Notes: a model not told the origin generated them from the letters alone. A DNA stretch of 37,109 nucleotides from an uncultured Alphaproteobacteria bacterium (GCA_929200455.1 CAKMZR010000001.1:1-37109); one strand, 5' to 3'. Shown: positions 9,395 through 36,544, counted from the first letter of the stretch. A program made the numbers and translations.

Positions 9395-9395
9395 T

Positions 9396-11384
9396 ATGGT
9401 CGGCAGGACAGAAAAAAGAAAAACAGAGATAATAACGGACGGTGATTCGCGGGGTTATCAGAGGTCTACAAAGGCGGCGGGCAAGGCGAATGACTTTTTG
9501 GTAAGTAGTTTGAAGAAAGTCACAAACATTGCAACTGCGGTGTTTGTGGGGTTGTCGGCGGCGGTGGGGGTGGCAATAAAGGCGTTTGATGAACAGATAA
9601 GGGCAGAGAGAAAGTTAAGAAACGCGTTGCAGAATTCAGGGCGTGAGGTTGAGAAGAACACAGCTTACCTTAAAGAGCAGGCGGCGGCGTTGCAAAGGGT
9701 GACGGATATTGGTGATGAGACCACACTTGCATTGCAATCACTGATTGCACCCGTCAAGTCTTTGACGGTTCAGGGGATACAGAGGGCGACAAAGGCGGCG
9801 ATTGATATGGCGACGGCTTTGGACAAGGGGCTGACTCGGACAACGCGGCTTTTGGCACAGGCTTTGGAGGCTCCGATCGCGGGGCTTACGACTTTGCGGA
9901 CGAACGGAATCGAGTTCACGGAGGAGCAGAAAGACCTCATTAAGCAACTGGTGAACACCAATCGCACATTTGAGGCACAAAGCATCATCCTCAAAAAAAT
10001 AGAGGATAGGTATGGTCGTGTGAGTGAGAAGCTGGCAAAAACACCACTTGCAGTTGTACAACGTGTGAAGAATGAGTTTGGTGATATTTTGGAGATAGTG
10101 GGTGATGTAGCGTCGGAGGCTTTGGTGCCTTTCCTCTTAAGGTTGAAAGATATGCTACAATCTTGGAAAGAGAATGAGGGGGCGATAAGAAGGGTGACTG
10201 AAATCACGCTTGACCTTATTAAGTTTTTAGGTGTTTTCCTTACCTTGGCACTGGGGGCAAGGGGTATTGTTGCGGTGACGGCGGCGGTTAACCTATTAGC
10301 GGTTGCATTTAGGACGGGCAGAGTAGCGGCGTCGGCGTTTTGGGGCAGTGCAACGCTGGGGGCGTCGCTTTTGATAACGGAGTTTGACACGATAAATGGT
10401 GCGATTGAACACTTGATTTCTCGCTTTAAAGTTGCAACAAAAGAGAGCAAGGGTGTTGTTGACCCTCGCGGCGGCGGGCGGTTGACGCCAGAAGAACAGC
10501 TTGCGGCGTTTAGAGGTTCACAACAACCAGAAGTTGAAGAGGAGGAGGCGGGGGCGGCGTCGGGATCGGGCGGGGTGCAACCTGTGAATAGAGAAACACC
10601 ACAACCATCGGGCGAGTTGCAAATTGACGGGAGTGCGGGGCTGTCCGATCCGAACAGCACGGCGGCGTTCCGTGCGGCAAACGAATCCAAAACAGAGGCT
10701 GAAGTCGAATATAGGGAAAAACTGAAGGAAATCAGGCAAGAGGCTGATGATGCGGAGAGGGAGAGGCGAGAAAAAGAAGAAGAAGAGGTGAAGGAACACA
10801 ATGCAACGCTTTTTCAACGTGCGGTTGATTTTGGCAAAAGGCTTGCAGACCTGAGACAGAAGCGTATCGAGGAGGAGAAGAGGGCTGAAGAGGCTTTGCG
10901 TGATTTCAAAATCAAGGCGGCGTCCGACGCGGCGACGGGTGCGGCACGTGTATTCCGATCTGCATTACTACATCAGGTTGCAACTTTGATAAAGGCGGTG
11001 CCTGCGTTGTTTGTGGCACAGGGGGCGGCAACAGGTGGAATATTCGGCTTGTTTGCTACTTTGGCAAAGGTGGCGGCGGTTGTCGAGCCTTTGCGGACAA
11101 TACATGATATTCTCTCGTCGGAATCGCCAAAGTTTCATGAGGGCGGGACGGTAAGGGCGGCAAAAACGGGAGGTGAGGTCACGGCAACACTTCAGGACGG
11201 CGAGACGGTGTTTTCGAGGGGAGACACGCACAAGTTGATTAATAGGTTGTCGGATAAGCTTGAGAGGGGCGGCGGCGGTGGGGTGTTGCGGGTGCTAATA
11301 GGGGTTGAGGATGAGGAGGGAATGGTAAGGTATCTTAGAGGTAAATTGGCAGAAGACACAGAGGAAAAGGATTTGATCACATGA
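9396..11384 (+). CDS. Tail tape measure protein
   Basis: 662 aa from ATG 9396 (GGAGG upstream). Has hydrophobic segments, long helical Ala/Leu-rich regions, the motif LRTNGIEFTEEQKDLIKQL, a charged coiled coil and a Gly5 tract. Confidence 0.8.
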   Translation: MVGRTEKRKTEIITDGDSRGYQRSTKAAGKANDFLVSSLKKVTNIATAVFVGLSAAVGVAIKAFDEQIRAERKLRNALQNSGREVEKNTAYLKEQAAALQRVTDIGDETTLALQSLIAPVKSLTVQGIQRATKAAIDMATALDKGLTRTTRLLAQALEAPIAGLTTLRTNGIEFTEEQKDLIKQLVNTNRTFEAQSIILKKIEDRYGRVSEKLAKTPLAVVQRVKNEFGDILEIVGDVASEALVPFLLRLKDMLQSWKENEGAIRRVTEITLDLIKFLGVFLTLALGARGIVAVTAAVNLLAVAFRTGRVAASAFWGSATLGASLLITEFDTINGAIEHLISRFKVATKESKGVVDPRGGGRLTPEEQLAAFRGSQQPEVEEEEAGAASGSGGVQPVNRETPQPSGELQIDGSAGLSDPNSTAAFRAANESKTEAEVEYREKLKEIRQEADDAERERREKEEEEVKEHNATLFQRAVDFGKRLADLRQKRIEEEKRAEEALRDFKIKAASDAATGAARVFRSALLHQVATLIKAVPALFVAQGAATGGIFGLFATLAKVAAVVEPLRTIHDILSSESPKFHEGGTVRAAKTGGEVTATLQDGETVFSRGDTHKLINRLSDKLERGGGGGVLRVLIGVEDEEGMVRYLRGKLAEDTEEKDLIT

Positions 11385-11836
11385 GTTATCATTTTGTGAG
11401 AAATGTATCGGGTGGGTTGTATAATTTGGACTACACCACACCACACCAACCAGTTGTGCAATTTCCGATAAAGCGTGGCAGTAAGCAAGATGGGGTGATG
11501 TACAACGGCTTACCTTATTACGTGAGAACACCACCGTATCATGAATTCAACTTGTCGTTGCAGGGTGCGAATGATTTGGATGTGACGGCGTTTACGACCA
11601 TGTTTTCATCTAATGCACCAATAACGTGCAATTTAGTTGGAGGCACGCACGCGGGCGGGTGGTCTCAGGGTGAGGCTGATTATGGTCTCGCGGCGGTGTT
11701 GCGTGGGACTTTTCAGGCGGTGCCTTTGGGGGATTTGATAGTGCAGAGCATGAACAACCCTTATGATCCGATTTTGGATGAGGGGGTGGAAAGTCGCGTG
11801 TGGGTTGTCACTGCAAACTTTGGGATAACGGTATGA
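11381..11836 (+). CDS. Hypothetical distal tail protein
   Basis: 151-aa ORF overlapping the tape-measure stop. Assigned by position only. Confidence 0.5.
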   Translation: MSYHFVRNVSGGLYNLDYTTPHQPVVQFPIKRGSKQDGVMYNGLPYYVRTPPYHEFNLSLQGANDLDVTAFTTMFSSNAPITCNLVGGTHAGGWSQGEADYGLAAVLRGTFQAVPLGDLIVQSMNNPYDPILDEGVESRVWVVTANFGITV

Positions 11837-13269
11837 GCGTACTAGACAACTTATCGTTGTACTTTGGCAAACTGGGTTCAAACAGTACCTTCAACCGTTT
11901 TGGCGATGATTTTGACGTGAAATACGTCGGAAATTCACATGATATAGACTGGGCAGACGTCTTAAGCTTGACCAACACCACACCTTGTCGGACTGGCAAA
12001 TACGATAGTTTCATATACAAAGCGGGTGAGTCGGCTTTGGAAAGGTGGGTTTTACGTGTGAAAAAGAGGGTGGTGGTTTTGGATTATTACGGGGCAAACT
12101 TTATTTTGAGCAAGGGAACGGGCAACGGTAGAACGGTTCTTATGTTTGGGCGGGCAAATGAGGTGATAGAGAAGAGGGATTATGATGAGATTGTGATAAA
12201 AAACGTTCTTTCTCATTACTGGAACCGACCACTTGATACAACTTGGGGTAGCAATGCGGAGTATAGAGATGGCTTTGCAAAGGGGGCGATGGGGTATCAA
12301 TTCCCTAATAGTGATTTTGACGGCGGCAACGAATCACTTGATATGCATCCTTCACCACAAACGATAGGCGGCTACCTGCAGTTGCAAAGCATGATAAACG
12401 GGAGGGGTTATTATGGCGTTGATTTACCAAATATCTCACATAGCAACACACTTACAACCGACGCGGGAAGAAGGGTAGAGGTGGACTATTTATCGGTGAA
12501 AGAGATTGAGAGTGCAAAGGTCTGTAATTCAATCTGGCTGAGGGGGATAGGCGATACGAGAATGGCGGTATTTGATCCTCAGAGCGTTTTGGAATACGGC
12601 GAAAAGAAGCTTGATATAGGCGGGGTGAGAGTGGAATCACTATCAGAAGTTGCAAAGATGTTCACGCGGCGGGCGGCAAGGCGTATTGAGGTGAGATCAC
12701 CAATTGACTTTTCCTTCCACTTTTACGGGAAAAACCAAGGTAATCTTGTGACAAGAAACTTTCAGAGGCAGATAGTTTCTGATTTGGATGCGGGGACTTT
12801 GGGTATGCAACTTAAGATGGTAAAGATTACGAATGGGAGTGAGGTGGTGGATAACGCGGGAGAACGATTGCCAGTCTGCTATTTAGTGGACTGGCAAGGT
12901 GGGGATGGGGTGTTGCATTTTAGAAATGCGGTGAGTGGGGTTTTTGCGAGAGATGAGAGAGGGTTGTGGAAAAAGCATGTTGGCTACGATGTGCAATTTC
13001 AATCAAATACACGTATAGATAGAGTGATGACGGTGCCACAGGTTCAGGCGGCTGAATGGTTTGCGTTTTTTGAGGGGGTTTTGGTGAACGGCGGTGTGGC
13101 AGGACTACCCTTGGTTGTGCAAGACCTCGCGAATCCTCCACTTGACTTTTACAAGGCTGAGTGGTATTTACAGAGTACAAGATACGATGTTTTTCATGAC
13201 GTCATGACGACGGTATGGGTGGACGGGGCGAATATGACGTCGTCGCAATTTTCAGAAAGGCAACTTTGA
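11833..13269 (+). CDS. Hypothetical tail/baseplate protein
   Basis: ATG 11833 in an ATGA overlap with the upstream stop; 478 aa. Confidence 0.5.
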   Translation: MSVLDNLSLYFGKLGSNSTFNRFGDDFDVKYVGNSHDIDWADVLSLTNTTPCRTGKYDSFIYKAGESALERWVLRVKKRVVVLDYYGANFILSKGTGNGRTVLMFGRANEVIEKRDYDEIVIKNVLSHYWNRPLDTTWGSNAEYRDGFAKGAMGYQFPNSDFDGGNESLDMHPSPQTIGGYLQLQSMINGRGYYGVDLPNISHSNTLTTDAGRRVEVDYLSVKEIESAKVCNSIWLRGIGDTRMAVFDPQSVLEYGEKKLDIGGVRVESLSEVAKMFTRRAARRIEVRSPIDFSFHFYGKNQGNLVTRNFQRQIVSDLDAGTLGMQLKMVKITNGSEVVDNAGERLPVCYLVDWQGGDGVLHFRNAVSGVFARDERGLWKKHVGYDVQFQSNTRIDRVMTVPQVQAAEWFAFFEGVLVNGGVAGLPLVVQDLANPPLDFYKAEWYLQSTRYDVFHDVMTTVWVDGANMTSSQFSERQL

Positions 13270-14042
13270 TGGGCAATAATGCACTGAGAAAAGTAACACC
13301 GAATAGCGTTTTTCCTGCTGATGGAGCGGATCAGTATTTTACAGCTTTAAGTGGTGATTTGTATCCAAGAGATATAAGCGGCAACGTCGCAAGCGGAGCG
13401 GCTAACTTGGGTTCACCTACAATTCCTTGGGGAACGATGGCGGCGGGCGGGCTTGTTTTGGGCAGTCAGACGGTGAATGAGGAGAAGATAAGGCGTCTTG
13501 ATGACCTTCTCACGATACAATCTTTAGGTGTGTACCATGTGGACAAGATAAGCAATCCGACGAATAGAGTTTTATACACTGCACCTACATTTTCAAGTGC
13601 AAATACCAAGATGAAGGCGGTTGTGTTTTCATCATTTTATGTGAAACAAGGCGTTGTGGTGAGGAATGTGAAGAGAGCAAATGCAACCTTGAGTATACAT
13701 ATGGCGGGTTTGAAAATGGGGCAATATTCACTTCTGGATGACACACCGACGGTTGGCGGTGCTTCAGAATCTTCTGGCTTTTATCAAAAGATGGTGTGGC
13801 AGGAGGACTCGACAACGGGGAACACAAGCGAGGCGGCTTCAACTGGAGGTGGCATTGTGGACTTTTACACATCGGAGGGCTTTGGCTTCAACACGGCATC
13901 GGGGGCGACTGGGTTGGTCAACCTAGGGGCGAACTCAATATCGATGGCAAGGCTTTCATCAGGTCAGACAATTTCACTTGCGAACATTGCAAACGTGACT
14001 TCTGATTTTGAGTTTGCGGCGGCGATCCTTCTTACAACTTAA
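13269..14042 (+). CDS. Hypothetical tail protein
   Basis: ATG 13269 in a TGATG overlap; 257 aa. Confidence 0.5.
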   Translation: MGNNALRKVTPNSVFPADGADQYFTALSGDLYPRDISGNVASGAANLGSPTIPWGTMAAGGLVLGSQTVNEEKIRRLDDLLTIQSLGVYHVDKISNPTNRVLYTAPTFSSANTKMKAVVFSSFYVKQGVVVRNVKRANATLSIHMAGLKMGQYSLLDDTPTVGGASESSGFYQKMVWQEDSTTGNTSEAASTGGGIVDFYTSEGFGFNTASGATGLVNLGANSISMARLSSGQTISLANIANVTSDFEFAAAILLTT

Positions 14043-16332: not shown

Positions 16333-19300
16333 ATGGCTTTTACACACGACTCCACAACTTTTGATATACATTACGATGACACAGATGATAACGACACGGC
16401 GGCGTTGCTTGCCTATATAGCGGCGACTCCTGCACTTCAACCTCACTGGGTATATGCTGACGGTGTTTTGACGACTGGTAAGGTTTTACGCAATGCGTCG
16501 GATTGGAGGGGGAAAATTACACTCCATAGGTTGAATTTACGGTTCGTCGGTTCTGGTGGTTTTGGGGCAAGGAACAGGACTGCGAGAGCAAACAAAATTC
16601 ATGCAACCTATTGCACGATAAGATATGAGGGGGATTCTTATACATCTGCGGGTTTTGATGGGGTGTCAGGGCAAGATGTAGACCTTTCCTTTTCAACTTT
16701 TACTAGTCTGGCAAGCGGTTTGGCGAGTAATCAGGATTTGGTGAAGTTTGTCAGAAATGAGAGGGTGGGTGCGACTATAAAGATGGACGGGGCTTCATTC
16801 ATTCAACTCGGAAATGCAACCGTAAGTTTTAGGCTTAATCCGAACGCGGCGACCATCAAGGGGTTGTCGCTTGAAAATAAAAGTGAGAGCGGTGCCTTTC
16901 AACTTGCATTGGGGACGGAAAACAACACCAAAGGCACGTTTGAGGATTTGACGTTGAGGGGTATAAGTTCTTTAGGTAACATTGGTGGGGCAGGTTCAAA
17001 AAATGCAACTTCGGAGATAGATTTTATACGTATGACAACCGATGTCCGAGATTTCAATTTTCCCGCTGGTGGTCAAGGAGGAAACAATTATATTGATTGC
17101 AGTTTTGACGGTCATGCCTTGCCTGCCAATTTCAGAGGGAGGTACCACTATGATACGGCTTTGAGTGAGGTAGACCAATACAATCGCTTTTTTGCATCGT
17201 ACGATGCAAAAGTGATTGATACAACCTTGAATGGTATTGTTGGTGTGAAGGTGGTGGTGCATAGGTCAACAAATGAAGAACAATTTGATGTGTCAACGGC
17301 GAGCGATGGGACGATTACAACTCAAAGGGTGTTAATTGCTGAATTCACGGGGCATAATGTTGCGGTGACTTATTCAGATTTCAAGATAGGTTTTTTGAAG
17401 TGGGGAAAATCAATTGTGACGGGGGTGAAGGCGTTGCAAAATGGCAAGATTGAAGATGTTCAAGTTTTGATTGATGACGGCTTCATCGTGGAGCAAAACC
17501 AAGGAGTTGTGAGGGCGAGGCAGTTTGTTGCATCGGCGAATGATGCTTATGAAGGGTTAATCTCAACATTTATGGATGCTTACGATGGGGTTAATACCGT
17601 CATACCAGTGACGGTTGAGGCGGGAGATATTTTATTCTTTGGAACGCGTAAGGTCATTTTAGACCCTGGAGCGTTGTCGGTGATATATTTATCAGTGACG
17701 GAGGTCGTCCTGAAGGTCAATTCTGCAACCAGAAGCTTAAACATCAATGTGCGGACTGAGGGGGTTTATGAAGAGGGGGGCAGACCTCTTCCATCTTCTG
17801 GCGGCGTTGATGCATCGGCACATTCACCAATAAACACGGGGATAGTGATAGCCAGCAATACCGACCTCATTCTTAAGTTTTATGGTGTGGACGAGGTGGA
17901 CGTGTCGGATACGTTGGTAAATGCCAGAAATCTTGGGAGTACGGTGGGGCGGTTGTTTGCGGGGGTGATAGCGGGCTTTAGAAAAGACGCGAGTCAATCA
18001 ACGTCAGAACACCCCATTTATTTTAGAACAAAGCGATCGGAATGGGCGAGTAGACCACAGATACACTTTTCATACACAAACGAAGGTGTGACGTCTGTAA
18101 AATCTGTTGATTTGGTGACAAGCGGAAATTCACAAGAAATTACGTTGACGCAATCAGAGCGGATTGCCACGATTGAGGCGGGGGTAGCACAACTTAAGAG
18201 TGAAATTGACTTCATCTTCTCTCTTGTCTCGAGAACGGCGTCGGTGACGTCACACCATAAGGTGTCTACGGGTGGTGATATAAACGTGATAGGCGGCTCG
18301 GCAGTGCCAGATGCAACCGCAGATGGTGATATTTTGGACGGCTATAGGATTTTGAAGGGGACAAAGACGGGTGATTTAATAACGGCAGATTCGTCGGGTT
18401 CTATAGAAATCAAAATCTGGTTCAAAAAGTCGGATTATGTTGACGGATTCTGGTTTCCTTCACTCACCCAAACCATCCCAGAAGCCACGCTTTCAAATGC
18501 AATAATCAAACTTTATGGTGAAGGTGAGGGACATTCTCCCACAGAAGTTGCATCTGAGGCTTTGGGTGCGGAGTCTGCGGGGGTGTTTTCTTTTGAAGCG
18601 TTCAATTACGATCCCTTGAAGCCAGTTTATAGGGATTTTTTCTTCGGAAATGCAAACGTGAGAAGCATAACCGTTGCTGTGACGGGAACACCAAATGCAA
18701 CCGCTGGTGTGTATAAACTCAATGCGAATCCACGCGTGGAGAGGCGGGGTGATGTGGTGACGAGGACGAATCTGCAGGCGGTGAATTTGGTGCAGGTCGG
18801 CGGGCTAACCACAACAAAGGCGGAGTTGACTTCTGGCGGCGGCGGTGGTGGGGGCGGTGGAGAGGTCTTGTATGAAGAAAGACAACTTAAAAGTGTGAAT
18901 GGCAACCTGCTTACCTTTGCGGCAAAGACGGGTGAGGTGGCTGACACATTCCATAACAGGTCAATCTTGGTTGAAAAAGACAACCGTCGCGAGACCTATT
19001 TGATACAGGCGGCAAGTGTACAATCTGGAGATGTAACAATCCACGTTAATGCCAATCGGCAGGGTCTGGCGGCGAATGATTCGATTAAGATTTATGATAG
19101 GCTGGACATGCCTTCACAACACAAAATCGACACAAAAACTGCGGGATTGACGACGGCTGAGACGGAGGCGGCGGTGCAGGCAGGTCTCTTATCGGCTCCG
19201 AATACAACCAAGGCGGGTTATAAGTTGGATTTGACGACAACTTATATTGAGGACGCGGTGAAGAAGGCGATGGATGAATTGTCGGATACGGTAAAGAACA

Positions 19301-19539
19301 CCTATAAGTTGTCTTTGTCGACTACTCAGATTGAAGATGCGGTGAAGGCAGGTCTGTTGGCGGCACCCGATACAACCAAGGCGGGTTATAAGGGGGCAGG
19401 AGGTGAGGCGGCGACGGTGGATATAGCTGCGATAGCGGCGGCGGTGGTGGAGGCTGTTTTGGCATCGGCGGTTGCAAAAAAACAAGATGTTGAAGACAAC
19501 AGACAGTTGACCGATCAGATGTTCATCGATCAGGAGTAA
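16333..19539 (+). CDS. Tail fibre / tail spike protein
   Basis: 1068 aa, the largest ORF. Has an internal Gly9 linker and C-terminal 28-aa tandem repeats. Assigned by position and architecture. Confidence 0.65.
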   Translation: MAFTHDSTTFDIHYDDTDDNDTAALLAYIAATPALQPHWVYADGVLTTGKVLRNASDWRGKITLHRLNLRFVGSGGFGARNRTARANKIHATYCTIRYEGDSYTSAGFDGVSGQDVDLSFSTFTSLASGLASNQDLVKFVRNERVGATIKMDGASFIQLGNATVSFRLNPNAATIKGLSLENKSESGAFQLALGTENNTKGTFEDLTLRGISSLGNIGGAGSKNATSEIDFIRMTTDVRDFNFPAGGQGGNNYIDCSFDGHALPANFRGRYHYDTALSEVDQYNRFFASYDAKVIDTTLNGIVGVKVVVHRSTNEEQFDVSTASDGTITTQRVLIAEFTGHNVAVTYSDFKIGFLKWGKSIVTGVKALQNGKIEDVQVLIDDGFIVEQNQGVVRARQFVASANDAYEGLISTFMDAYDGVNTVIPVTVEAGDILFFGTRKVILDPGALSVIYLSVTEVVLKVNSATRSLNINVRTEGVYEEGGRPLPSSGGVDASAHSPINTGIVIASNTDLILKFYGVDEVDVSDTLVNARNLGSTVGRLFAGVIAGFRKDASQSTSEHPIYFRTKRSEWASRPQIHFSYTNEGVTSVKSVDLVTSGNSQEITLTQSERIATIEAGVAQLKSEIDFIFSLVSRTASVTSHHKVSTGGDINVIGGSAVPDATADGDILDGYRILKGTKTGDLITADSSGSIEIKIWFKKSDYVDGFWFPSLTQTIPEATLSNAIIKLYGEGEGHSPTEVASEALGAESAGVFSFEAFNYDPLKPVYRDFFFGNANVRSITVAVTGTPNATAGVYKLNANPRVERRGDVVTRTNLQAVNLVQVGGLTTTKAELTSGGGGGGGGGEVLYEERQLKSVNGNLLTFAAKTGEVADTFHNRSILVEKDNRRETYLIQAASVQSGDVTIHVNANRQGLAANDSIKIYDRLDMPSQHKIDTKTAGLTTAETEAAVQAGLLSAPNTTKAGYKLDLTTTYIEDAVKKAMDELSDTVKNTYKLSLSTTQIEDAVKAGLLAAPDTTKAGYKGAGGEAATVDIAAIAAAVVEAVLASAVAKKQDVEDNRQLTDQMFIDQE
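17190..17211. repeat. 22-bp perfect palindrome TTTTGCATCGTACGATGCAAAA (copy 2, inside tail-fibre gene)
   Basis: Identical to 4949-4970 and again in frame as FASYDAK. Confidence 0.95.
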
Positions 19540-20041: not shown

Positions 20042-20141
20042 AAAAAATGCATTTTATTCAAAAAAAGAATTGACAAAGTAAAATGCGGGCGGTATCGTCA
20101 TGGCGTTGAGGGGGAAACAAAAACAGAAAGGTCAGGTAATA
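20042..20141 (+). promoter_or_regulatory. Early promoter+leader cassette, copy 1 (-35 at 20070, -10 TATCGT at 20093)
   Basis: TTGACA-17 nt-TATCGT, then TGAGGGGGA...GAAAGGTCA...ATG. Aligns with five other copies. Confidence 0.75.
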
Positions 20142-21630: not shown

Positions 21631-21916
21631 GAAGTTCAGGGTGAACAGCGACTACCAAATAAAAGTGGCGGAGGCTGTGTTGAAGTTTTATCATAGGCGG
21701 ATGATCGAGGAGACGGGGGGCATCGACAACGCAATCATGGTGTTCATTTTTGATACAAAAACGGAGATGTGGACAATGAATATTGCCTTTTTGTTGGCAG
21801 ACGGTAGAAAAGTCAACGTCCGACCAATGCGATTCCGTGAGGGGTGGCACGGCGTGGATCAGGTTGCATCTTTGAATGTCAATTACCCACCGCAAAGCAA
21901 CCTTGCGTTTGTCTGA
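21614..21916 (+). CDS. Hypothetical early protein
   Basis: ATG 21614 with AGAGGTGAAA upstream (ORF-track start 21533 overlaps the previous gene extensively); 100 aa. Confidence 0.5.
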   Translation: MQINLKKFRVNSDYQIKVAEAVLKFYHRRMIEETGGIDNAIMVFIFDTKTEMWTMNIAFLLADGRKVNVRPMRFREGWHGVDQVASLNVNYPPQSNLAFV

Positions 21917-21917
21917 G

Positions 21918-22244
21918 ATGAAAAGACAACCAATCGTCAGGACCCTTTTTCCTTATGTAGGAGGAAAAAGCAAGGCATTAAAACACATCATCGACTACCT
22001 CCCTCAAGAAGGCAGAGTGATTTCACCGTTTTTAGGGAGCGGCAAGATTGAATTTGTACTCGCCAAACGCGGCGTTGATGTCTACGGCTATGATGCGTTT
22101 CCTGAACTTGTAAACTTCTGGTTGTGCGTGAAAGAGGACGCGGAGAAGGTTTCCGATTTGGCAGTTGGTCTGGGATTTCCTAACAAAGAAAAGTTTTTGC
22201 AGATAAAACGCGATTTGGGGGATTTTAAGCAGAGGTTATTGTAG
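21918..22244 (+). CDS. dam: DNA adenine methyltransferase (Dam/D12 class), N-terminal fragment
   Basis: LFPYVGGKSK and SPFLGSGKIEF (AdoMet-binding region motifs). Ends at TAG 22242. Confidence 0.7.
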   Translation: MKRQPIVRTLFPYVGGKSKALKHIIDYLPQEGRVISPFLGSGKIEFVLAKRGVDVYGYDAFPELVNFWLCVKEDAEKVSDLAVGLGFPNKEKFLQIKRDLGDFKQRLL

Positions 22245-22263: not shown

Positions 22264-22632
22264 TTGACTGAAAATTGGGCAGAGAGAATAAAGAGTTTTT
22301 CCTTTCCTCATAATTTACATGTGAAACACCAAGATTTTATAGAGACGTTGTCAGGTCATTCTGGTGAGTTTTTTTATTGTGACCCTCCGTACTATAAAGG
22401 CGGCGGTTATTATGGGGTGAATGGCGAATATTGCAACGGTTTCAACCACGAGATGTTGCGTGATTTGTTGTCGAAAGAGGGGCTGTGGGTGCTGAGTTAT
22501 GGCGATTGTGAGGAGGTGAGAGATTTATATACCAATTTCAGGTTGATTGAGTTGAAAATACCATACGGAAACAGAGGGCAGGTAGGCAGAGAACTTTTGA
22601 TTTTCGGTGACGACGTCAGGTTTCTATTATAA
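22264..22632 (+). CDS. dam: DNA adenine methyltransferase, C-terminal fragment in the +1 frame (frame open from 22207)
   Basis: Catalytic DPPY motif (FFYCDPPYY). No independent ATG or SD; the ORF-track start is TTG. Confidence 0.65.
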   Translation: MTENWAERIKSFSFPHNLHVKHQDFIETLSGHSGEFFYCDPPYYKGGGYYGVNGEYCNGFNHEMLRDLLSKEGLWVLSYGDCEEVRDLYTNFRLIELKIPYGNRGQVGRELLIFGDDVRFLL

Positions 22633-22729
22633 AAAATGAATAATCTTCAAAAAAGTTGTTGACACAGCAGAAGAGGGGTGGTAATGTAAGGGCATGAGGG
22701 GGACAGAGTAAAGCGTAAAAGGTCACATT
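22631..22729 (+). promoter_or_regulatory. Early promoter+leader cassette, copy 3 (-35 at 22659, -10 TAATGT at 22682)
   Basis: Same architecture; the leader is more diverged (TGAGGGGGACAGAG...AAAAGGTCA). Confidence 0.75.
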
Positions 22730-23371
22730 ATGAACACATCACCAACGACAGATCAGTACGGAGAGTTGCAGAGGGCTTTTGACTTCTTCAACGAGAAGTT
22801 GTTTGACAATCAACTACCACAAGTCATGCTTACCATCACGGACTCAAAAAGGTTTGTTGGCACGTATTGCAAAGGTCTTTTTTATAAGGGCGGCGAAAAC
22901 GAGAATCGTCTTGATGAAATATGCTTTAATGCGTCAAGCTTTGAAAATGGGGGTGAAATGGAGATTTTGAAGACGTTGGTTCACGAGCAATGCCATCAGT
23001 GGCAGTGTCATTTTGGCTTAAAGCCACCAAAAAGCAATCATCATAATAAAGAGTGGGGTGCAAAAATGGAGTCGGTTGGGTTGATTCCGTCTTCAACTGG
23101 CAAAGAGGGTGGGGATAAAACGGGTAGAAATATGAGTGAGTACGTCGAGAAGGGTGGTCGTTTTGAAAGGTTTGCAGAAGAATTTATAAAAGAATTCAAC
23201 CTTGATTGGTTTGCGAGAGATATGTCACGGAAGGGGAGTGCAAAAAAGGCGAATAAAATCTGCTATTCTCACCTTTGCGAGGTGACTTGTGAAGAGGTGA
23301 AGTTTTGGGGGAAGCCAGAAATCAACGCAATTTGCGGCGATTGCGGTGAAAGATTCGAGGAGAAAGAGTGA
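22730..23371 (+). CDS. SprT-like zinc metalloprotease domain protein with C-terminal Cys cluster
   Basis: HExxH motif in LVHEQCHQWQCH, an SprT-like N-terminus (FNEKLFDNQLPQV) and the cluster CYSHLCEV...CGDCG. Confidence 0.65.
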   Translation: MNTSPTTDQYGELQRAFDFFNEKLFDNQLPQVMLTITDSKRFVGTYCKGLFYKGGENENRLDEICFNASSFENGGEMEILKTLVHEQCHQWQCHFGLKPPKSNHHNKEWGAKMESVGLIPSSTGKEGGDKTGRNMSEYVEKGGRFERFAEEFIKEFNLDWFARDMSRKGSAKKANKICYSHLCEVTCEEVKFWGKPEINAICGDCGERFEEKE

Positions 23372-23429
23372 TTTTTTTCATCGTACGATGCAAAAAAAGG
23401 GGTAGGGGTAATCAACTGGGGCGGGAGAA
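23372..23429 (+). promoter_or_regulatory. Composite element: T7-CATCGTACGATGC-A7 palindrome followed by the G-rich tract GGGGTAGGGGTAATCAACTGGGGCGGGAGAA
   Basis: ~90% identical to 30928-30983. Fills the gap between the stop at 23371 and ATG 23430. Confidence 0.7.
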
Positions 23430-24089
23430 ATGAGTAGTAGGATGAGTGAAAGGCTAGAACATCTAACAAAGAGGTTGGGTTCTCGGGGGTTGGAGCTGTG
23501 GGTTAGGAAGGGGCGTATGGGGACTATTAAAGGTTGTGAAATGGTGCTGTTTATCGACGGCAAGCATAGCGGTTCAGTATCGCGTGACCTGAGCGAAGAC
23601 GCTGTTTTCAGGGCAGGGAACCTAAACCTAGAACTTGTTGCGGAACTCTACGAAACCCTATTACGGCAGGCAAACCCAGAGGAGAGCCAAAATTGGATAA
23701 TTTACCACCACTTCTGCCAAGACCTCCCAGACTCAGAACCCGAGCATTCCTACTCTGACCCCATTGACATCGCTGGAGGTGTCGGGCGGCTATACGGAAA
23801 GGAGAAGAAGACTAATGTTGTTCGTATTTGGATAAATGAAGATCGACTCCCTAATTTTATCAAAGAAAACTTCGGCGATGCCCCCCATTGGCTTCTAATG
23901 CCTCTAGTGGAGCGGTGGGGGAAAGCGTACTTTTACCTTCCTCAGACACTCGATTGCGACTTTGTCGCTCGTGAAATCGTGGAGGGGGTGTTCTGGGGAA
24001 GTAAAAGGTATGGTGCTCGTTTGGTCTCCTGTCGAGAAGGCGATCGACCGCACCTGTATATTTTTTTCCGTCAAGGGAAAAAAGACTAA
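23430..24089 (+). CDS. Hypothetical protein, compositional outlier (C-rich codons)
   Basis: 219-aa ORF with GGGAGAA upstream. Hand counts show + strand C content roughly 2-3 times that of neighbouring genes. Confidence 0.6.
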   Translation: MSSRMSERLEHLTKRLGSRGLELWVRKGRMGTIKGCEMVLFIDGKHSGSVSRDLSEDAVFRAGNLNLELVAELYETLLRQANPEESQNWIIYHHFCQDLPDSEPEHSYSDPIDIAGGVGRLYGKEKKTNVVRIWINEDRLPNFIKENFGDAPHWLLMPLVERWGKAYFYLPQTLDCDFVAREIVEGVFWGSKRYGARLVSCREGDRPHLYIFFRQGKKD

Positions 24090-24843: not shown

Positions 24844-24873
24844 TTTTGGGATAAAGGGGTGGGAGAGAGGAAG

Positions 24874-25224
24874 ATGAAGATGATGAATAGGAAAAAGCCA
24901 ATACCTTCAGTTCGGTCAATAATGAATATCCCTTTTGGCACTGAAGACTTTGCAAATTATTGCAAGAAAAAGAGAATACAATTCAAAGTTGTAGAAGTTT
25001 GCGATTTTGAAGAGGTGCGTTTTTATGGGCAGGGGTTGAAGGGCGGCAAGTGGAGGGGTGTTCTGGGCGAATCAAAAACGCGAGGAGTGAAAATCATCAA
25101 AACGATGTACGTGACTGACTACACCAATGAAGAGCATTTCGATCCGCTACCCATACCTTACTCTTTTGATACAACTCACGGTTGTTTTCCTATTGACGGA
25201 AGGGGATTCGGCGATGAATATTAA
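24874..25224 (+). CDS. Hypothetical early protein
   Basis: ATG 24874 preceded by GGGGTGGGAGAGAGG; 116 aa. Confidence 0.55.
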   Translation: MKMMNRKKPIPSVRSIMNIPFGTEDFANYCKKKRIQFKVVEVCDFEEVRFYGQGLKGGKWRGVLGESKTRGVKIIKTMYVTDYTNEEHFDPLPIPYSFDTTHGCFPIDGRGFGDEY

Positions 25225-28596: not shown

Positions 28597-28693
28597 AAAA
28601 ATGCATTTTATTCAAAAAAAGAATTGACAAGGTGAAATGCGGGTGGTAATGTAAGGTCATGAGGGGGAGAAAAACAAACGAAAGGTCAGATAA
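28597..28693 (+). promoter_or_regulatory. Early promoter+leader cassette, copy 5 (-35 at 28624, -10 TAATGT at 28647)
   Basis: Upstream part matches copy 1; the -10 and leader are near-identical to copies 2 and 6. Confidence 0.8.
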
Positions 28694-30440: not shown

Positions 30441-30493
30441 ACTATAGAGGGAATGGGTCAATAAATAGGGGTGGGAGAAATGAGGATGATGTG

Positions 30494-30925
30494 ATGGCAG
30501 AAGAAGAAGATTGGGACGACGATGTGGAGGAGGAGGCGGGGTTGTCTCGAAGAGAGCAGGCAAAAATGAGACCCGAGGAGGATAAGGGTGTGAGGAATAA
30601 TAAAAGAAAAGCGGAAGAATATGGTGTCTTGATGGCGGCGGAGTGCTTGGAAAAAATGGATTTTGACGAGGCTTGCGAGATGTTTAGGCAGAGATTCGGG
30701 AGAGAGGTTGTAGTGGAGGGGAGTGTAATTTGGGTTTTTGAAAACGGGACGGTTAATGAAATGGTCGAGAAATCGGTAATTATGGCAGGCAATGACATAA
30801 CGGTTCAATCTTGCGAATCGGCAATATGCAAAATCAGGCGTCTTTATAAAGACGGACTTTTGTTGAGGGCGATAAAGTGGAAGAATATCTGGCAGATTGA
30901 CCTGAAGAAGAGGATTGAGCAGTGA
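30494..30925 (+). CDS. Hypothetical protein with acidic N-terminus
   Basis: ATG 30494 overlaps the stop of a 4-codon upstream mini-ORF (TGATG); 143 aa. Confidence 0.55.
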   Translation: MAEEEDWDDDVEEEAGLSRREQAKMRPEEDKGVRNNKRKAEEYGVLMAAECLEKMDFDEACEMFRQRFGREVVVEGSVIWVFENGTVNEMVEKSVIMAGNDITVQSCESAICKIRRLYKDGLLLRAIKWKNIWQIDLKKRIEQ

Positions 30926-30927
30926 TA

Positions 30928-30996
30928 TTTTTGCATCGTACGATGAAAAAAAAGGGGTAGGGGCAATCAACAGGGGCGGGAGAATGAGAGTGAATT
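30928..30996 (+). promoter_or_regulatory. Composite element, second copy: T5-GCATCGTACGATG-A8 palindrome followed by GGGGTAGGGGCAATCAACAGGGGCGGGAGAA
   Basis: ~90% identical to 23372-23429. Fills the gap before the HAD gene. Confidence 0.7.
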
Positions 30997-31686
30997 ATGA
31001 CAGAGAAAACCATGAGTGAAAATGCGAAAAAGCTTGTTTTGTTTGATTTGGATGGCACTGTGAGCAATGACGAGGAGAGGTTCAAATACCTTCCAATGAG
31101 TGCAGATGGGGATTTTGAGGAATACCATAGGTTGTGTGCGTTTGACAAACCCTTCGATAAGACTTTTTGCAAAATGCTTGAATTCATGAAAAACCCTGAA
31201 AATATAGTGGGGTTTCTCACGATGCGACCACCTTCCATGTGGTCGGCAACAAAGTTTTTTCTGAACTCTTCCTATAGAGATGTGATGATGGAAAATGGAA
31301 AATACACCAAAGAAGAGCATCTGGATTTTATGAATTATGATTGGGTGCCTCTCTTTTACCCTGATGCACCTTTGCACATTTACGCTGATGCACCTTTGCA
31401 CATTGAAGGCATGTCATATAGGCTCTTTGACGTGTTGAAAGCTATTGAGGGGAATAGCAATTTTGAAGATGACGATTATAGAGAAAGGGTGGTCAACTAT
31501 AAAGCTTTTGTCATTTTTGCGGCAAGGTATAGACAAAATAGACACAACGAGCGGTTGTACACGGGGGCAATCTACGTTGATAGCGACGAGGCTCTCTTGA
31601 GGGCAGTGACGGAGAGGGTGGTTTGGTTTGATGAAAACTGGGATAACCTTAAGGATAAGGTACCTTCAAAGGGGGAGGGTGAATGA
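30997..31686 (+). CDS. HAD-superfamily phosphatase-like protein (start ATG 30997 or 31012)
   Basis: N-terminal motif I LVLFDLDGTVS. Contains an in-frame 24-bp tandem duplication. Confidence 0.55.
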   Translation: MTEKTMSENAKKLVLFDLDGTVSNDEERFKYLPMSADGDFEEYHRLCAFDKPFDKTFCKMLEFMKNPENIVGFLTMRPPSMWSATKFFLNSSYRDVMMENGKYTKEEHLDFMNYDWVPLFYPDAPLHIYADAPLHIEGMSYRLFDVLKAIEGNSNFEDDDYRERVVNYKAFVIFAARYRQNRHNERLYTGAIYVDSDEALLRAVTERVVWFDENWDNLKDKVPSKGEGE

Positions 31687-32475: not shown

Positions 32476-34179
32476 ATGAACGTCCGACCATATCAACAAA
32501 AGGCGATCCGAGATGTCTTGTCATTTTGGCAGGGCGGCGGTGAGAGTGTCATGGTGCAAATGCCGACGGGTGCGGGCAAGGGACATGTGGCGGGTGAATT
32601 GCTTAAGATATGCTCTTCACAGGTGAAATCGTCTTTATTCATTGTGCATAAAAAGACTTTGATAGATCAATTTTCACAGCGGTTCAGGACAACCCACGGT
32701 TTATCTCCTGCGATATGGTCTAATGCCAATCGGGGCATTATGGTCAGGCGGTGGATTGCGAATGAGCGGCGGTTGCGGCGGGGTGCGGTGGTGCTGGGTA
32801 CACCACAGGCGTTGACAAGAACGGGGGCTTTTCCGAGTGTTGATAAGGGTGGTTTTGAGTATGTTTTTTGGGATGAGGCACACCACATAGGTGCAGAAAC
32901 TTGGCAACTCATTCTTGATAGGTTGAGGAAAGACACGCAACTCAAGGTTGTGGGTTTTTCGGCGACTCCGATGAGGGGTAACGGTGAGGGGTTGAGCAAG
33001 TGGTTTCAAAAGTTGATTTGTCCGACAACTCCCGAAGAGTTGATTTTGGACGGGCATCTTGTGCCTGTGAAGGCGTTTGTACCAGAAAAAAAGAAGGCGA
33101 TAGAGTTGCGGGTTGCGGCGGGTGCGAAGAGGCTGGCGTTTGATGACTTTTCATCTACGGAAATCTCGGCAGGGTTGAAAAAGGTCAAGATTTGGGGTGA
33201 CTTGGCAAAGAACTATAAGAAAATTGCAACCAATCATGACGGCACGTACAAGAGGGGTGCGGTGTTCTGTGCGTCAATCCCTGATGCGGAGAGGGCTGTT
33301 GATTTGTACAACCATAGCGGGATTAATGCGGTGTGTCTTCATTCACGGATGGAAGAGCATGAGAAAGAGAACGCTCTTGACGATTTCAGAGATGGAAAAG
33401 TTGATTTGTTGGTGAGTGTCGAGATGGTGACGGAGGGGTTTGACCTGCCTGAACTAGAGGTTGTAGTTTTCTTAGCTCCGACAAGGTCTTTGATAAAGTT
33501 TATGCAATGTGCTGGGCGTATGATGCGACCTGCGGCGGGTAAGCAAAACGGCTTTATTATTGATCACGTGGGGAACGTTTTGCAACACGGCATGCCAGAT
33601 GAGCATCGCAATTGGTCGTTGGATATGGAGAAGGTGAGGGGTGACAGAGGCACCAATCAAGAAATAACAACCTTTGCGTGTGATGAGTGCGGGTTTATGA
33701 ATAGAAAAGGGGTGTTGAAGTGTGGGAATTGCGGGGTGATGTTTCCGAAGAAGGGCGGTGACGGCGGGGATGGCGATGATGATTTGTTGTTTGATGATGA
33801 TAGTGAGTTGGTGGAGGTTGAGGACAAGGAAGAGCGGAAGCGGAAGTTTGCTTTTTACAATGTCATCAACGAGGAGTTGATTAATATGCGTCTTGAAGAG
33901 CAGGAGGAGAACCCAAACATGGCTGATGACCATTTTCCGTATAAGAAATTGACCATTTACCAGACAGAATACCTGAGAGAGGCGATGAGAGAGGACTGGG
34001 ATTGGAGGGCTGAGTTTTATAGGATTATGACGCGTGAGAAAGTGCCTGCAAAATATCAACCCAAAGTTGGCGGCTTGAGAATGGCGGTGATTTGTGAGGC
34101 GATGAAGAACAACCTGAAAGAGTGGTCTGAAAAGTTTGTGACAAAAGATGAAGTCGAAGAACAAATATCAACAACTTAA
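32476..34179 (+). CDS. Superfamily 2 DNA helicase (DEAH box) with C-terminal zinc ribbon
   Basis: Motif I MPTGAGKG, motif II FWDEAHH, helicase-C-like region and CDECGF...CGNCG. Confidence 0.8.
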   Translation: MNVRPYQQKAIRDVLSFWQGGGESVMVQMPTGAGKGHVAGELLKICSSQVKSSLFIVHKKTLIDQFSQRFRTTHGLSPAIWSNANRGIMVRRWIANERRLRRGAVVLGTPQALTRTGAFPSVDKGGFEYVFWDEAHHIGAETWQLILDRLRKDTQLKVVGFSATPMRGNGEGLSKWFQKLICPTTPEELILDGHLVPVKAFVPEKKKAIELRVAAGAKRLAFDDFSSTEISAGLKKVKIWGDLAKNYKKIATNHDGTYKRGAVFCASIPDAERAVDLYNHSGINAVCLHSRMEEHEKENALDDFRDGKVDLLVSVEMVTEGFDLPELEVVVFLAPTRSLIKFMQCAGRMMRPAAGKQNGFIIDHVGNVLQHGMPDEHRNWSLDMEKVRGDRGTNQEITTFACDECGFMNRKGVLKCGNCGVMFPKKGGDGGDGDDDLLFDDDSELVEVEDKEERKRKFAFYNVINEELINMRLEEQEENPNMADDHFPYKKLTIYQTEYLREAMREDWDWRAEFYRIMTREKVPAKYQPKVGGLRMAVICEAMKNNLKEWSEKFVTKDEVEEQISTT

Positions 34180-36544
34180 AGAAGAGTTAGACGTCAGGCG
34201 GTGGCTTGGCTTAAAAAACGGAGAGGTCAATATCAGGTGTCCATCGGCATCACATAACGACAAAGACCCGTCATGCACCGTGTTTTCGGATGGTTTTTTG
34301 TGTCATGGTTGTGGTTGGAAGGGTGATATTTGCGACTACATGGTAGAGACGGGGCAGGCGAGGACCAATTCTGAGGCTTACAACCTCTTGACTGGAAATC
34401 GCGGGAAGGTTGTAGAAAAAGAGGACAAGGGCGGCGGCGGGGGTAAGGACAAGCGATATAGACCTCCTGCATTTTCACCATTTCCTGAGGGGTTCACTAT
34501 GAACCGTGAGGTTGCGGCGTCAATACCGTATCGGAAAATGGGCGATGACGGCAAGTGGGAGGTGGTGGTTGACACACCTGCGGCGGTGTATTTGTACAGA
34601 TTGGCTGATGGGCGGGTGTGTACATTGGTCTCGCGATACAACCTAGAGGATGACAAAAAGGTCTTTAAGCAGTGGTGTTGGGATCGTCGGAAGAACAAGA
34701 TGGCATCTGGCAACTCATTTTTGGACACGGAGGACGGCAAGAACAACCATCCGTTGTACAATTTGGGTGCGATTATTCAAAATGTTGGTGGTGTGGTGGT
34801 GGTGGTTGAGGGCGAGAAGTGTGCTGAGCATCTCAATAAGGGTTTTGTTGATGCGGGGCTGGAGGGGCGTTATGTTGCGACGACGTTTTTGCAGGGATGC
34901 AAGAGCGTCAAGAAGACTGATTTGCAACCATTGCGTGAGCGTGAGGTGTTGTTTTGGGCAGATAACGACAAGCAGGGCAAGAAGGCGATGGTTGAGGTGG
35001 CGGCTCTTCTGGGGATACGGTCATCTGATAATGCGAGACACGTTAAGGTTGTGGCGGGTGCGGGCAATGACTGTGCGGATATTGATGCGGCAAAGGCTGT
35101 GCAACGTGTGGTTGATACGTATGAGAAGATGGTGGAATTGCGAGAGCGTGAAAAACACGTTGAGGTTGAGGTGGTTGACGACGATGAGGACGACGTTGAC
35201 GGTGAACTTGCACGTATTTGGGCTGATGGCGATCCTGATGAGATTGAGGCACCTGTGCAATCGACAAGACCTGATGCACCACCACCGTCATGTACGGCGA
35301 ATTGCACGCACTGGTTGCAACGTGAGATAGATGAAGGCTCTTTGCAGATGAAATTCAATGAGTTGAGGGGTGAGTGGGAGGTGACGGGGGCAAAAGGGCG
35401 AATAACTGCAATCAATTCACACACGGGAGGTCTCACTGATCCGATCACGTCTGCAATTCAAGGTCATCTTGAGAGGCGTTTGGGTATACCATTGGTTGAA
35501 AAACACATCAACGCGGGGCTTGACACGCTCTCTTTATCACGTAAAAACCGCTTTCATCCTGTAAAAGACTACCTCAAGACGCTGGAGTGGGATGGTGTAG
35601 AGCGGTTGAATTACTGGTTTGCGGAGGCTTATGAACCCGATCCGATGAGGTGCGATCCCGCTTGGGTTGCAATCGCGGCGAGAAAGTTTCTTATCGGTGC
35701 AGTTGCAAGGGTGTTGGGTGAGGGTTTTGTGAAGAACGATAACATGTTTTTGATAGAGAGCAATTCTGGGGGTGTTGGTAAGTCTGAGGGGATGGAGGTG
35801 TTGTTTTTTGGTCATGTGATTTACATGAAAAAGTCTTCAGAACCATTCGGTGAAGATGCGTTGATTTCATATGGCAAGCACTGGCTGGTGAGCGATGATG
35901 ATTTTTCGGTGACGAGTAAGAAGGCTCATGAAGACCTCAAAACGTTTTTATCCCTGAAAAAAGAGGACGTGAGACGGAAGTACGCACGCAATTCTCAAAA
36001 CATGACAATAAAGTATGCGGTTGTGGGCAGTGTGAATATTCAAGGCGAGGGGCGTTATTTACCAGCGGATGACAACCTGCGGCGGTTTTGGGTGGTGTCA
36101 TCGGGGAAGAAGGCTGAGAGTGCAAAGTCGACGATTGACTACCTGAAGAGAAATCGGGATCAGTTGTGGGCAGAGGCGGTGAAGATGTATTCTGAGGGTG
36201 AACTTTGGTGGTTGACCAAGGATGAAGAGATAGATTTACAGAACAAAGCAGTGGCATCACGGCGTAAGGTCAAGACGTTGGTGGACAAAATCGACTATTA
36301 CCTCGTGAAAACGGATCACCAGTCACACTATCCAGTCGCAACTCTCCCACAGAAGGTCATCGGGGTGTCCGATTCACGCGGCATCAAAGATAGAGACATG
36401 GAGGCGGTAGCAAATCGGATGAGTGAGTTGGGCTATTCAAAGGCAAATAAGCGTGTGAGATTGATAAATGATGACGGTGTTTCATCGAAGAGTTGCACGG
36501 TGTGGTGTTGGGTGAAGAAGGGCGGCGACGGCGATGACAGTTAA
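34148..36544 (+). CDS. DNA primase (zinc finger + TOPRIM) fused to a VirE-like P-loop NTPase domain
   Basis: Zinc finger CPSASHNDKDPSC...CHGCGWKGD. TOPRIM motifs VVVVEGEKC and WADNDKQG, then an acidic linker. VirE-like HPVKDYLKTLEWDGVERLNYW and Walker A SGGVGKS. Confidence 0.8.
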   Translation: MKSKNKYQQLKEELDVRRWLGLKNGEVNIRCPSASHNDKDPSCTVFSDGFLCHGCGWKGDICDYMVETGQARTNSEAYNLLTGNRGKVVEKEDKGGGGGKDKRYRPPAFSPFPEGFTMNREVAASIPYRKMGDDGKWEVVVDTPAAVYLYRLADGRVCTLVSRYNLEDDKKVFKQWCWDRRKNKMASGNSFLDTEDGKNNHPLYNLGAIIQNVGGVVVVVEGEKCAEHLNKGFVDAGLEGRYVATTFLQGCKSVKKTDLQPLREREVLFWADNDKQGKKAMVEVAALLGIRSSDNARHVKVVAGAGNDCADIDAAKAVQRVVDTYEKMVELREREKHVEVEVVDDDEDDVDGELARIWADGDPDEIEAPVQSTRPDAPPPSCTANCTHWLQREIDEGSLQMKFNELRGEWEVTGAKGRITAINSHTGGLTDPITSAIQGHLERRLGIPLVEKHINAGLDTLSLSRKNRFHPVKDYLKTLEWDGVERLNYWFAEAYEPDPMRCDPAWVAIAARKFLIGAVARVLGEGFVKNDNMFLIESNSGGVGKSEGMEVLFFGHVIYMKKSSEPFGEDALISYGKHWLVSDDDFSVTSKKAHEDLKTFLSLKKEDVRRKYARNSQNMTIKYAVVGSVNIQGEGRYLPADDNLRRFWVVSSGKKAESAKSTIDYLKRNRDQLWAEAVKMYSEGELWWLTKDEEIDLQNKAVASRRKVKTLVDKIDYYLVKTDHQSHYPVATLPQKVIGVSDSRGIKDRDMEAVANRMSELGYSKANKRVRLINDDGVSSKSCTVWCWVKKGGDGDDS

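Follow-up and report, generated by a model that had tools for sequence, protein, structure and literature searches.

What does a short DNA element do when a phage carries it twice, each time between the stop codon of one gene and an ATG ahead of the next? The question is raised by a 37,109-bp contig (CAKMZR010000001.1; here called the window, the whole stretch of DNA that was analyzed), which is part of a 1.8-Mb, 302-contig assembly of an uncultured alphaproteobacterium (GCA_929200455.1) and carries a tailed-phage genome with all genes on the + strand. The element is a composite cassette of about 58 nt, built from a T-run, a palindrome (the dyad), an A-run and a G-rich block (the G-block), and lies once behind a gene for an SprT-like Zn-metalloprotease and once ahead of the replication genes. 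We found that the dyad belongs to a family that accompanies SprT-like protease genes across phyla, and the unit is best read as two separable modules, a putative operator (module A) and a putative leader (module B). Our estimate is about 45% that the cassette acts as an SprT-linked operator which, together with its G-rich leader, gates the expression of the genes downstream.

The duplicated cassette and its two modules

Copy 1 (23372-23429, + strand) directly follows the TGA (23369-23371) of the SprT-like gene and stops at ATG 23430, and copy 2 (30926-30983, + strand) begins 2 nt past the TGA (30923-30925) of the open reading frame (ORF) 30494-30925 and stops at ATG 30984. The copies are 5 substitutions and 1 indel apart; the ungapped match between 23373-23429 and 30928-30984 corresponds to 93% identity, or ~90% when the one-base deletion before the ATG is counted. 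Alignment and coordinates thus bear out the first-pass annotation of this DNA, which had described two ~58-nt copies of ~90% identity in a stop-to-ATG position. The run-up to the next ATG holds for both copies, with the qualification that the ATG of copy 2 is out of frame with the 229-aa ORF behind it. The same annotation had taken the element for a complete intergenic unit; as a whole it does occur twice, but the palindrome is not confined to it, and its core is also found at 4954 and 17195. The proteins encoded behind the two cassettes are unrelated to each other, and paralogy between them, considered as an explanation, was rejected since none was found.

The palindrome core, CATCGTACGATG, occurs exactly four times in the phage (4954, 17195, 23379 and 30934) and nowhere else in the 1.8-Mb assembly. 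The dyad in the phage spans 18-22 bp and has the form TTGCATCGTACGATGCAA with T/A-run flanks. The 18-bp cores of the putative operator are TTTCATCGTACGATGCAA in copy 1 (23376-23393), whose centre lies 13 nt past the sprT stop, and TTGCATCGTACGATGAAA in copy 2 (30931-30948). The other two sites are perfect 22-bp palindromes of identical sequence, TTTTGCATCGTACGATGCAAAA, at 4949-4970 within the capsid-like gene 4821-6494 and at 17190-17211 within the gene 16333-19539 for a 1068-aa tail protein, and both are translated as FASYDAK; together with copy 2, they lie 5.5-18 kb from sprT. Over 25 nt, flanks included, copy 2 carries the palindrome module of copy 1 as an exact reverse complement, whereas the orientation of the G-block is unchanged. 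A palindrome that is flipped, with its single asymmetric base pair reversed, next to a G-block that is not flipped, is as expected for a symmetric protein site joined to a directional leader. In addition, the palindrome, with four copies in the phage, and the G-block, with three to four, occur partly apart from each other.

Other identities of the palindrome were also considered. A cos/pac site was dropped by inference, four sites being incompatible with unit-length cos packaging, and so was a restriction target, the site being far longer than those of restriction-modification systems. An intrinsic or bidirectional terminator was rejected because, on both strands, the T-run precedes the hairpin and the A-run follows it, and the terminator scan had no entry for the palindrome. 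The palindrome in the capsid-like gene is followed by GGCGGGAG at 4991-4998, at the offset seen in both cassettes (61% ungapped match over 57 nt); this 8-mer is found seven times in the window, and its position here may be due to chance.

The G-block leader of copy 1, GGGGTAGGGGTAATCAACTGGGGCGGGAGAA (23399-23429, + strand), holds a GGGAG Shine-Dalgarno (SD) motif, and the next ATG is in frame with a 219-aa ORF (23430-24089, + strand), the start of which is ambiguous (23430, 23442 or 23517). The leader of copy 2 (30954-30983, + strand) shares with it the 18-mer GGGGTAGGGGYAATCAAC, which is present only in the two cassette copies (0.05 expected by chance). A third G-block (30448-30484, + strand), 76% identical and without a palindrome, leads to ATG 30480, which opens a frame of 4 codons (MRMM, then a stop), and a short relative, GGGGTGGGAGAGAGGAAG (24856-24876, + strand), leads to ATG 24874. 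Shorter relatives of the 3' part had been reported ahead of other starts, as is indeed the case: GGGG[CT]GGGAGA occurs only at 23418, 24856, 30468 and 30973, just 5' of the ATGs at 23430, 24874, 30480 and 30984. Within the G-block, GGGAG is followed by the ATG after 1-2 nt.

The G-block ATG of copy 2 opens an 11-codon mini-ORF (MRVNYDRENHE, then a stop; 30984-31019, + strand), whose stop lies just past the ATG at 31012, in frame with the main ORF; the two signals are contained in ATGAGTGA at 31012-31019. Similarly, the MRMM frame of the third G-block ends in TGATG (30492-30496), which overlaps the start of the main ORF at 30494. Translation of the main ORFs may be coupled to that of the two mini-ORFs (30480 and 30984), and this arrangement suggests that the G-block is a strong initiation region with short coupled leader ORFs. 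We infer a translational role for module B, as a leader that supplies the SD and the start. A 10-mer, ATGAGTGAAA (encoding M-S-E), is located 12 nt past the G-block ATG in copy 1 (23442-23451) and 28 nt past it in copy 2 (31012-21), and may mark the real starts of both downstream genes.

The gene behind copy 1 has no relatives. Its identity as a clear foreign island was rejected, since the 219-aa gene is only mildly C-enriched (C 0.21 vs 0.10-0.21 elsewhere). Behind copy 2 lies the 229-aa ORF (30997-31686, + strand), which resembles HAD phosphatases and polynucleotide-kinase-phosphatases and is the first gene of the replication module, with the helicase (32476) and the primase (34148) next.

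The dyad family and its link to SprT-like proteases

The four sites in the window score 18, 18, 17 and 17 of 18 (copy 1, 17/18) against TTGYATCGTACGATRCAA, the consensus of an 18-bp dyad family with the variants TTG(T/G)AT(C/T)G(T/C)(A/G)C(G/A)AT(A/C)CAA, which stands beside genes for SprT-like proteases of the Spartan fold. An exact scan of IMG/VR for WTGYATCGTACGATRCAW returned 44 loci, 24 of which have an SprT-like gene within ~0-650 nt; most of the other loci lie inside large ORFs, and this remainder looks like chance matches or a single lineage. From the protein side, we sampled 80 sprT loci from GTDB species genomes, which come from Verrucomicrobiota, Bacteroidota, Planctomycetota, Spirochaetota, Alpha-, Beta- and Gammaproteobacteria, an actinobacterial metagenome-assembled genome (MAG) and others. 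The family dyad was found in 60 of these 80 loci, and the same dyad turned up in the surroundings of SprT homologues in several phages, a RepL element and a plasmid-like element. No protein family other than SprT is common to the diverse dyad-bearing loci; the runner-up within 1.5 kb on either side of the 80 sprT genes is present at seven loci only. The earlier proposal that the palindrome is a protein-binding site is thus backed by comparative data from more than 100 loci.

Positions were counted in the 80 GTDB loci plus 21 loci fetched earlier, the window included. Sixty-nine sites have their centre between -150 and +20 relative to the sprT start and peak sharply at -20 to -27, and most elements have one site only, exactly at the sprT promoter or ribosome-binding site. 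In 48% of 66 distinct sites, the dyad is directly adjoined on its sprT-upstream side by a -10-like hexamer (A at position 2 and T at position 6), compared with 29% on the mirror side; when a match of at least 5/6 is required, the values are 24% and 8%, respectively. Examples are TATAAT directly followed by TTGGATTG and TATGAT directly followed by TGCATCG. Since the -10 abuts the dyad, the dyad would usually cover the transcription start region, which is the geometry of a repressor. The alternative that TACGAT inside the dyad serves as a general -10 was rejected: four loci fit and there is a weak -35 enrichment over the 66 sites (20% vs 9%), but an abutting -10 fits better. Six elements carry the dyad 9-13 nt past the sprT stop, among them copy 1 of the window and the loci L009, L026 (three tandem sites), L062/L065 and L096; some elements have the dyad past the sprT stop and ahead of the following ribosome-binding site, with no promoter there.

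Several sprT loci contain 2-4 tandem dyads ~22-35 bp apart, often with TATAAT between them (L026, 13443-13510; L028, 396-467). Tandem dyads upstream of sprT are also present in L078, L091, L116, L118 and L135, and this layout resembles multi-operator control regions. One IMG/VR phage lineage of ~59% GC (L053, L052, L023 and related) has the dyad-plus-sprT unit between the large terminase and the portal, where it looks like an inserted, self-contained moron with its own -10. The SprT clade of L062/L065 is encoded next to a T7-like RNA polymerase gene; its dyad, TTGTATTGGCCAGTACAA, is GGCC-centred and lies right after the sprT stop, and its zinc-ribbon motif is VKGKE in place of WGKP.

The way in which the sites vary bears on whether the dyad is read as DNA or as RNA. 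Half-site matches have decayed in tandem and weak sites with no compensating changes (L026, L006 and L028), and the common hybrid site, TTGCATCG...CGATACAA, creates a C-A mismatch in the hairpin of the sprT sense strand. From this pattern of substitutions, the dyad appears to act on DNA, not RNA.

The question then becomes which protein would bind it. The SprT-like gene of the window (22730-23371, + strand) has its own TTGACA cassette (22631-22729) and encodes a Zn-metalloprotease with HExxH, a third His and a C-terminal CxxC...CxxC ribbon. The best match of its AlphaFold model (predicted local distance difference test score, pLDDT, 89) is human Spartan (6mdw). Spartan, a DNA-dependent metalloprotease with a zinc-binding, DNA-contacting subdomain, is the best match of the phage protein in both sequence and fold, at a TM-score (template modelling score) of only ~0.4. 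No early phage ORF matched an HTH (helix-turn-helix) family, and a phage-encoded HTH, StbA-like or ParB-like binder was rejected, as Pfam and PHROGs gave no match on ~50 ORFs.

Dyad variants follow the SprT tree closely. The dyad positions 7/12 (C.G vs T.A) require 6 changes on this tree, compared with 20.4 in label shuffles, and positions 4/15 require 3 changes, compared with 11.9; in both cases 0 of 300 shuffles were as low. The protein column that contains K176 of the window has K in 26 of 27 loci of the dyad class 'ATCG' and R in 33 of 35 loci of the class 'ATTG' (TTGTATTGTACAATACAA), with ~5 K/R changes on the tree. K176 sits two residues before a conserved K-[YF] ahead of the first zinc-ribbon cysteine, and the window, with an 'ATCG...CGAT' dyad and K176, matches its class. 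This covariation of K/R with the dyad class is suggestive, not significant. Both main classes are found in several phyla, which makes a lineage-specific host factor unlikely as the binder. Because the dyad variants track both the SprT tree and the K/R residue by the zinc ribbon, the SprT-like protein is the likeliest binder, and we consider it probable that this protein itself binds the dyad.

The reading that we favor would proceed as follows. The SprT-like protein would be made early from its own TTGACA cassette and, as a dimer, would bind two dyads, one past its own stop codon and one ahead of the replication module, and probably the two coding copies as well. A bound dyad would hinder polymerase, whether it arrives by read-through from the TTGACA cassettes upstream or initiates at a weak extended -10 of copy 2. 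Occupancy of the dyads would determine how strongly or when the 219-aa gene and the phosphatase-helicase-primase operon are expressed, and the A-tract and the G-block would supply the 5' leader, the SD and the initiation site. The extended -10-like box in question, TGaTATTTT (30923-30931, + strand), abuts the dyad of copy 2 with the same geometry as at many sprT promoters; TTGAGC is found 18 nt upstream of this dyad's TACGAT, with no conserved -35. The equivalent place in copy 1 is occupied by TGaTTTTTT, whose position 2 is not an A, and a -35 is missing.

A further feature lies within the 3' end of ORF 30494-30925, 76 nt ahead of copy 2: a perfect 16-bp palindrome, CGTCTTTATAAAGACG (30839-30854), followed by a T-rich run and terminator-like on both strands. 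With such a hairpin in front of it, a restart of transcription at copy 2 would make sense.

A bolder version of the proposal, which we hold more tentatively, extends to SprT-like proteases of phages and plasmids in general. These would be sequence-specific binders, in which a basic arm and the zinc ribbon read the 18-bp dyad and K/R176 reads base pair 7. In the present phage, the protein might have been redeployed from simple autoregulation to a four-site network that gates the replication module, the orphan gene and the two structural genes, or might serve as a DNA-tethered protease against DNA-bound proteins of the host.

Objections and competing explanations

Several points weigh against an SprT-bound operator with a G-rich leader. 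First, there are only 3-6 independent K/R switches, with which a sign test cannot reach significance, and the dyad would follow the sprT tree through tight linkage and co-inheritance alone. Second, we know of no Spartan-type protease that reads sequence. Third, the GGAG of the G-block is only 2 nt from the ATG, which is in frame with the main ORF in copy 1 only and out of frame in two of the three copies; for the 219-aa ORF, the database gene call starts at 23517. Fourth, it is not obvious how the phage would benefit from an early protein that represses its own replication and structural genes. Finally, the four dyads (4959, 17200, 23384 and 30939) are spaced more evenly than chance round a 37.1-kb circle, with gaps of 12.2, 6.2, 7.6 and 11.1 kb (P = 0.037 for a minimum gap at least as large as observed; P = 0.033 for a maximum gap no larger than observed), which hints at a genome-wide instead of a gene-specific role.

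This last point leads to the main rival to gene control, which we rate as unlikely, though the strongest of the alternatives. The four dyads would be landing pads that tether the DNA-dependent SprT-like protease genome-wide, for example to clear or cleave DNA-bound defence or silencing factors of the host, and the position in spacers would be incidental. Besides the even spread, it would account for the two perfect copies inside structural genes, and it agrees with the Spartan-like fold and the intact HExxH. The neighbourhood is compatible as well: SprT homologues adjoin anti-restriction genes (ArdA) in the leading regions of plasmids, and in the phage the neighbour is a Dam-like methylase. 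However, the single site at the sprT promoter or ribosome-binding site in most elements is better explained by autoregulation, no substrate is known, and the 93% conservation over the whole 57 nt argues that palindrome and leader work together.

Less likely still is an activator-dependent promoter, the model that the first-pass annotation had put forward. A protein bound to the palindrome at the -35 position would recruit the host RNA polymerase to a weak -10 (TAATCA/CAATCA) as in a middle class of promoters, and the G-rich 3' end would be a very short leader. The cassette does lack the UP/-35 part of the six TTGACA cassettes while being located, like them, at gene boundaries; MAFFT aligns TAATCA with their -10, TAATGT, in a G-rich context on both sides; and the terminator-like hairpin at 30839-30854 would make a new promoter useful before copy 2. 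Activators that straddle the -35 also exist, and the dyad over the would-be -35, upstream of a weak -10-like hexamer, is reminiscent of class II sigma-70 promoters, on which CRP is centred at -41.5, and of lambda cII. Nevertheless, the details do not agree with a promoter of this type. The two hexamers end in A, without the conserved final T of a -10 and without a TG extension, the third G-block has CAATAA, and a sigma-70 scan detected nothing promoter-like in either copy. The dyad centres (23384.5 and 30939.5), relative to the hexamers at 23409 and 30964, would fall at -36.5 and not at -41.5, and the start would fall inside GGGGCGGGAG, leaving a leader of ~9 nt. The apparent homology of the G-block to the -10/leader of the TTGACA cassettes, suggested by MAFFT, was rejected since no cassette ranked higher than shuffled background in a local-alignment scan, and elsewhere the dyad overlaps or follows the -10 of sprT promoters in the repressor geometry. 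What remains of the proposed second promoter class is a control cassette that recurs in intergenic DNA and is of another kind than the six TTGACA cassettes; neither the -10 nor the class II geometry is supported.

An element that works at the RNA level, in which the palindrome would serve processing or stability as a 5' hairpin and the G-block would mask the SD as an RNA G-quadruplex and so tune translation, is improbable. The G-run spacing reported earlier (G4-2-G4-9-G4-1-G3) is correct, and the loose quadruplex motif proposed from it fits, but the central loop of 9-10 nt lies outside the canonical rule: the four runs of at least three G at 23399-23425, 30954-30980 and 30449-30475 are detected only with a maximum loop of 10. 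With G-quadruplex terms, ViennaRNA predicts that each of the three G-block copies forms a three-layer quadruplex in which the SD G-run takes part, at a gain of ~4.6-7 kcal/mol, and between copies 1 and 3 changes affect 2 of 15 G-run positions vs 7 of 13 loop positions. The likeness to quadruplexes in 5' untranslated regions that mask ribosome-binding sites is in the four G-runs, the last within the SD; the differences are the long central loop and the abundance of such motifs on the + strand, which has 14 loose motifs where shuffles have 5.7 +/- 2.2, and 21 regions that reach a G4Hunter score of at least 1.7. Nothing but the conservation in three leaders singles out the motif of the cassette, and the modelled quadruplex is accordingly given a very low probability. 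As for the hairpin, the coding palindromes fold well (z = -3.4 and -4.9), but those in the spacers fold no better than shuffles (z = +0.5 and +0.9), and Rfam has no match for the element. A conserved RNA hairpin was therefore rejected, given also the uncompensated half-site changes and the C-A mismatches in the transcribed sense described above.

Finally, a scar of recombination or duplication, in which a junction was copied during module shuffling and has no function beyond a ribosome-binding site, might be suspected from the mosaic phage with its repeated cassettes, the inverted palindrome module and the 219-aa gene without relatives, but is highly improbable in view of the four exact cores in 37 kb, two of them in frame within unrelated proteins, the fixed positions of the dyad family beside sprT across phyla and the only mild C-enrichment of the 219-aa gene.

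The phage and comparison with known systems

The late region of the phage includes a gpA-type large terminase (382-2346, + strand), a lambda-type portal (2885-4324, + strand), the capsid-like protein (4821-6494, + strand), a tape measure (9384-11384, + strand) and the tail protein or tail-fibre gene (16333-19539, + strand), as well as a holin and a GH108 endolysin. The early region, divided by the six ~108-nt TTGACA promoter cassettes, encodes a two-piece Dam-like methylase, the SprT-like protease, a PD-(D/E)XK exonuclease, RecT, the helicase (32476-34179, + strand) and a VapE-type primase (34148-36544, + strand). No lysogeny module was detected in the phage, no close phage relatives for a comparison of the cassette were found in INPHARED, IMG/VR or JGI metagenomes, and the family of the source MAG comprises a single genome, the present one. 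Neither for the dyad sequence nor for phage- or plasmid-borne SprT-like genes did full-text literature searches return anything relevant.

Further features of the window were noted in passing. The D12-class (Dam-like) adenine methyltransferase is split into two ORFs in different frames just 5' of the SprT-like gene (21876-22244 and 22264-22632), one aligning with the N-terminal and the other with the C-terminal half of the Pfam model; this would reflect an assembly error, a frameshift or a pseudogene. Two of the six TTGACA cassettes have a perfect 12-bp palindrome, AAAATGCATTTT, in their A/T-rich upstream part (20044-20055 and 28598-28609), and the remaining four have ATGAATAAT in its place. 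Another perfect palindrome, of 14 bp (TCATGACGTCATGA, 13194-13207), is located at the junction of the ORFs 11800-13269 and 13215-14042.

Repeated cassettes that combine an operator with a leader are ordinary phage grammar, and the unusual part here is the operator. Scattered sites of this kind are familiar from the stoperators of cluster A mycobacteriophages, which are repressor sites dispersed in transcription units, where the bound protein (gp71 in L5) can stop an elongating polymerase. Stoperators are asymmetric 13-bp sites, ~24-30 per genome; they are orientation-dependent and recognized by an immunity repressor of the HTH type. The present dyad resembles them in that several copies of one site are scattered through a phage genome, also within genes. 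It differs in being symmetric and in having four copies, two of them intragenic; moreover, the asymmetric variants of copies 1 and 2 are oppositely directed.

The candidate binder shares with human Spartan (SPRTN; PDB 6mdw) and yeast Wss1 the HExxH motif and a C-terminal part that binds zinc and contacts DNA. What activates Spartan is the structure of DNA and not a particular sequence, and neither protein has a known link to operators. The dyad family is very widespread across phyla, and its only constant partner is this protease-like protein without a classical DNA-binding domain. If the protease does read the dyad, it would represent a new class of sequence-specific DNA-binding regulator, or of DNA-tethered protease, in mobile elements, and would provide a function for the common 'SprT-like' gene of plasmid leading regions and phage early regions.

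A plasmid system offers another parallel. The stbDR of plasmid R388 consists of direct 9-bp repeats with 2-bp spacers and an 11-bp periodicity and is bound by the HTH protein StbA, a repressor of leading-region genes, among them ardC, which encodes a protein with a metalloprotease domain (bioRxiv 10.1101/2022.04.29.490116). The stbDR consensus, (T/C)TGCATCAT, matches the dyad half-site TTGCATCGT at 8 of 9 positions. Here, however, there is a single inverted dyad, and the ORFs of the window have no StbA-like or HTH match in Pfam; we regard the likeness as a resemblance only.

The Cro-CI operators of lambda, 434 and P22 and the LexA boxes are similar to the dyad in being 18-bp sites with two-fold symmetry, and most dyads of sprT loci, sometimes two to three in tandem, likewise abut or overlap a -10 about 25 nt before the start. 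They differ in their partner, since no HTH repressor is linked to the dyad and only a Spartan-fold zinc protease with a zinc ribbon accompanies it. They also differ in placement: the sites of this phage are not at the sprT promoter, but after the sprT stop, before the replication genes and in two structural genes. The phage thus presents the dyad away from the sprT promoter, and is a natural test case for a role beyond autoregulation.

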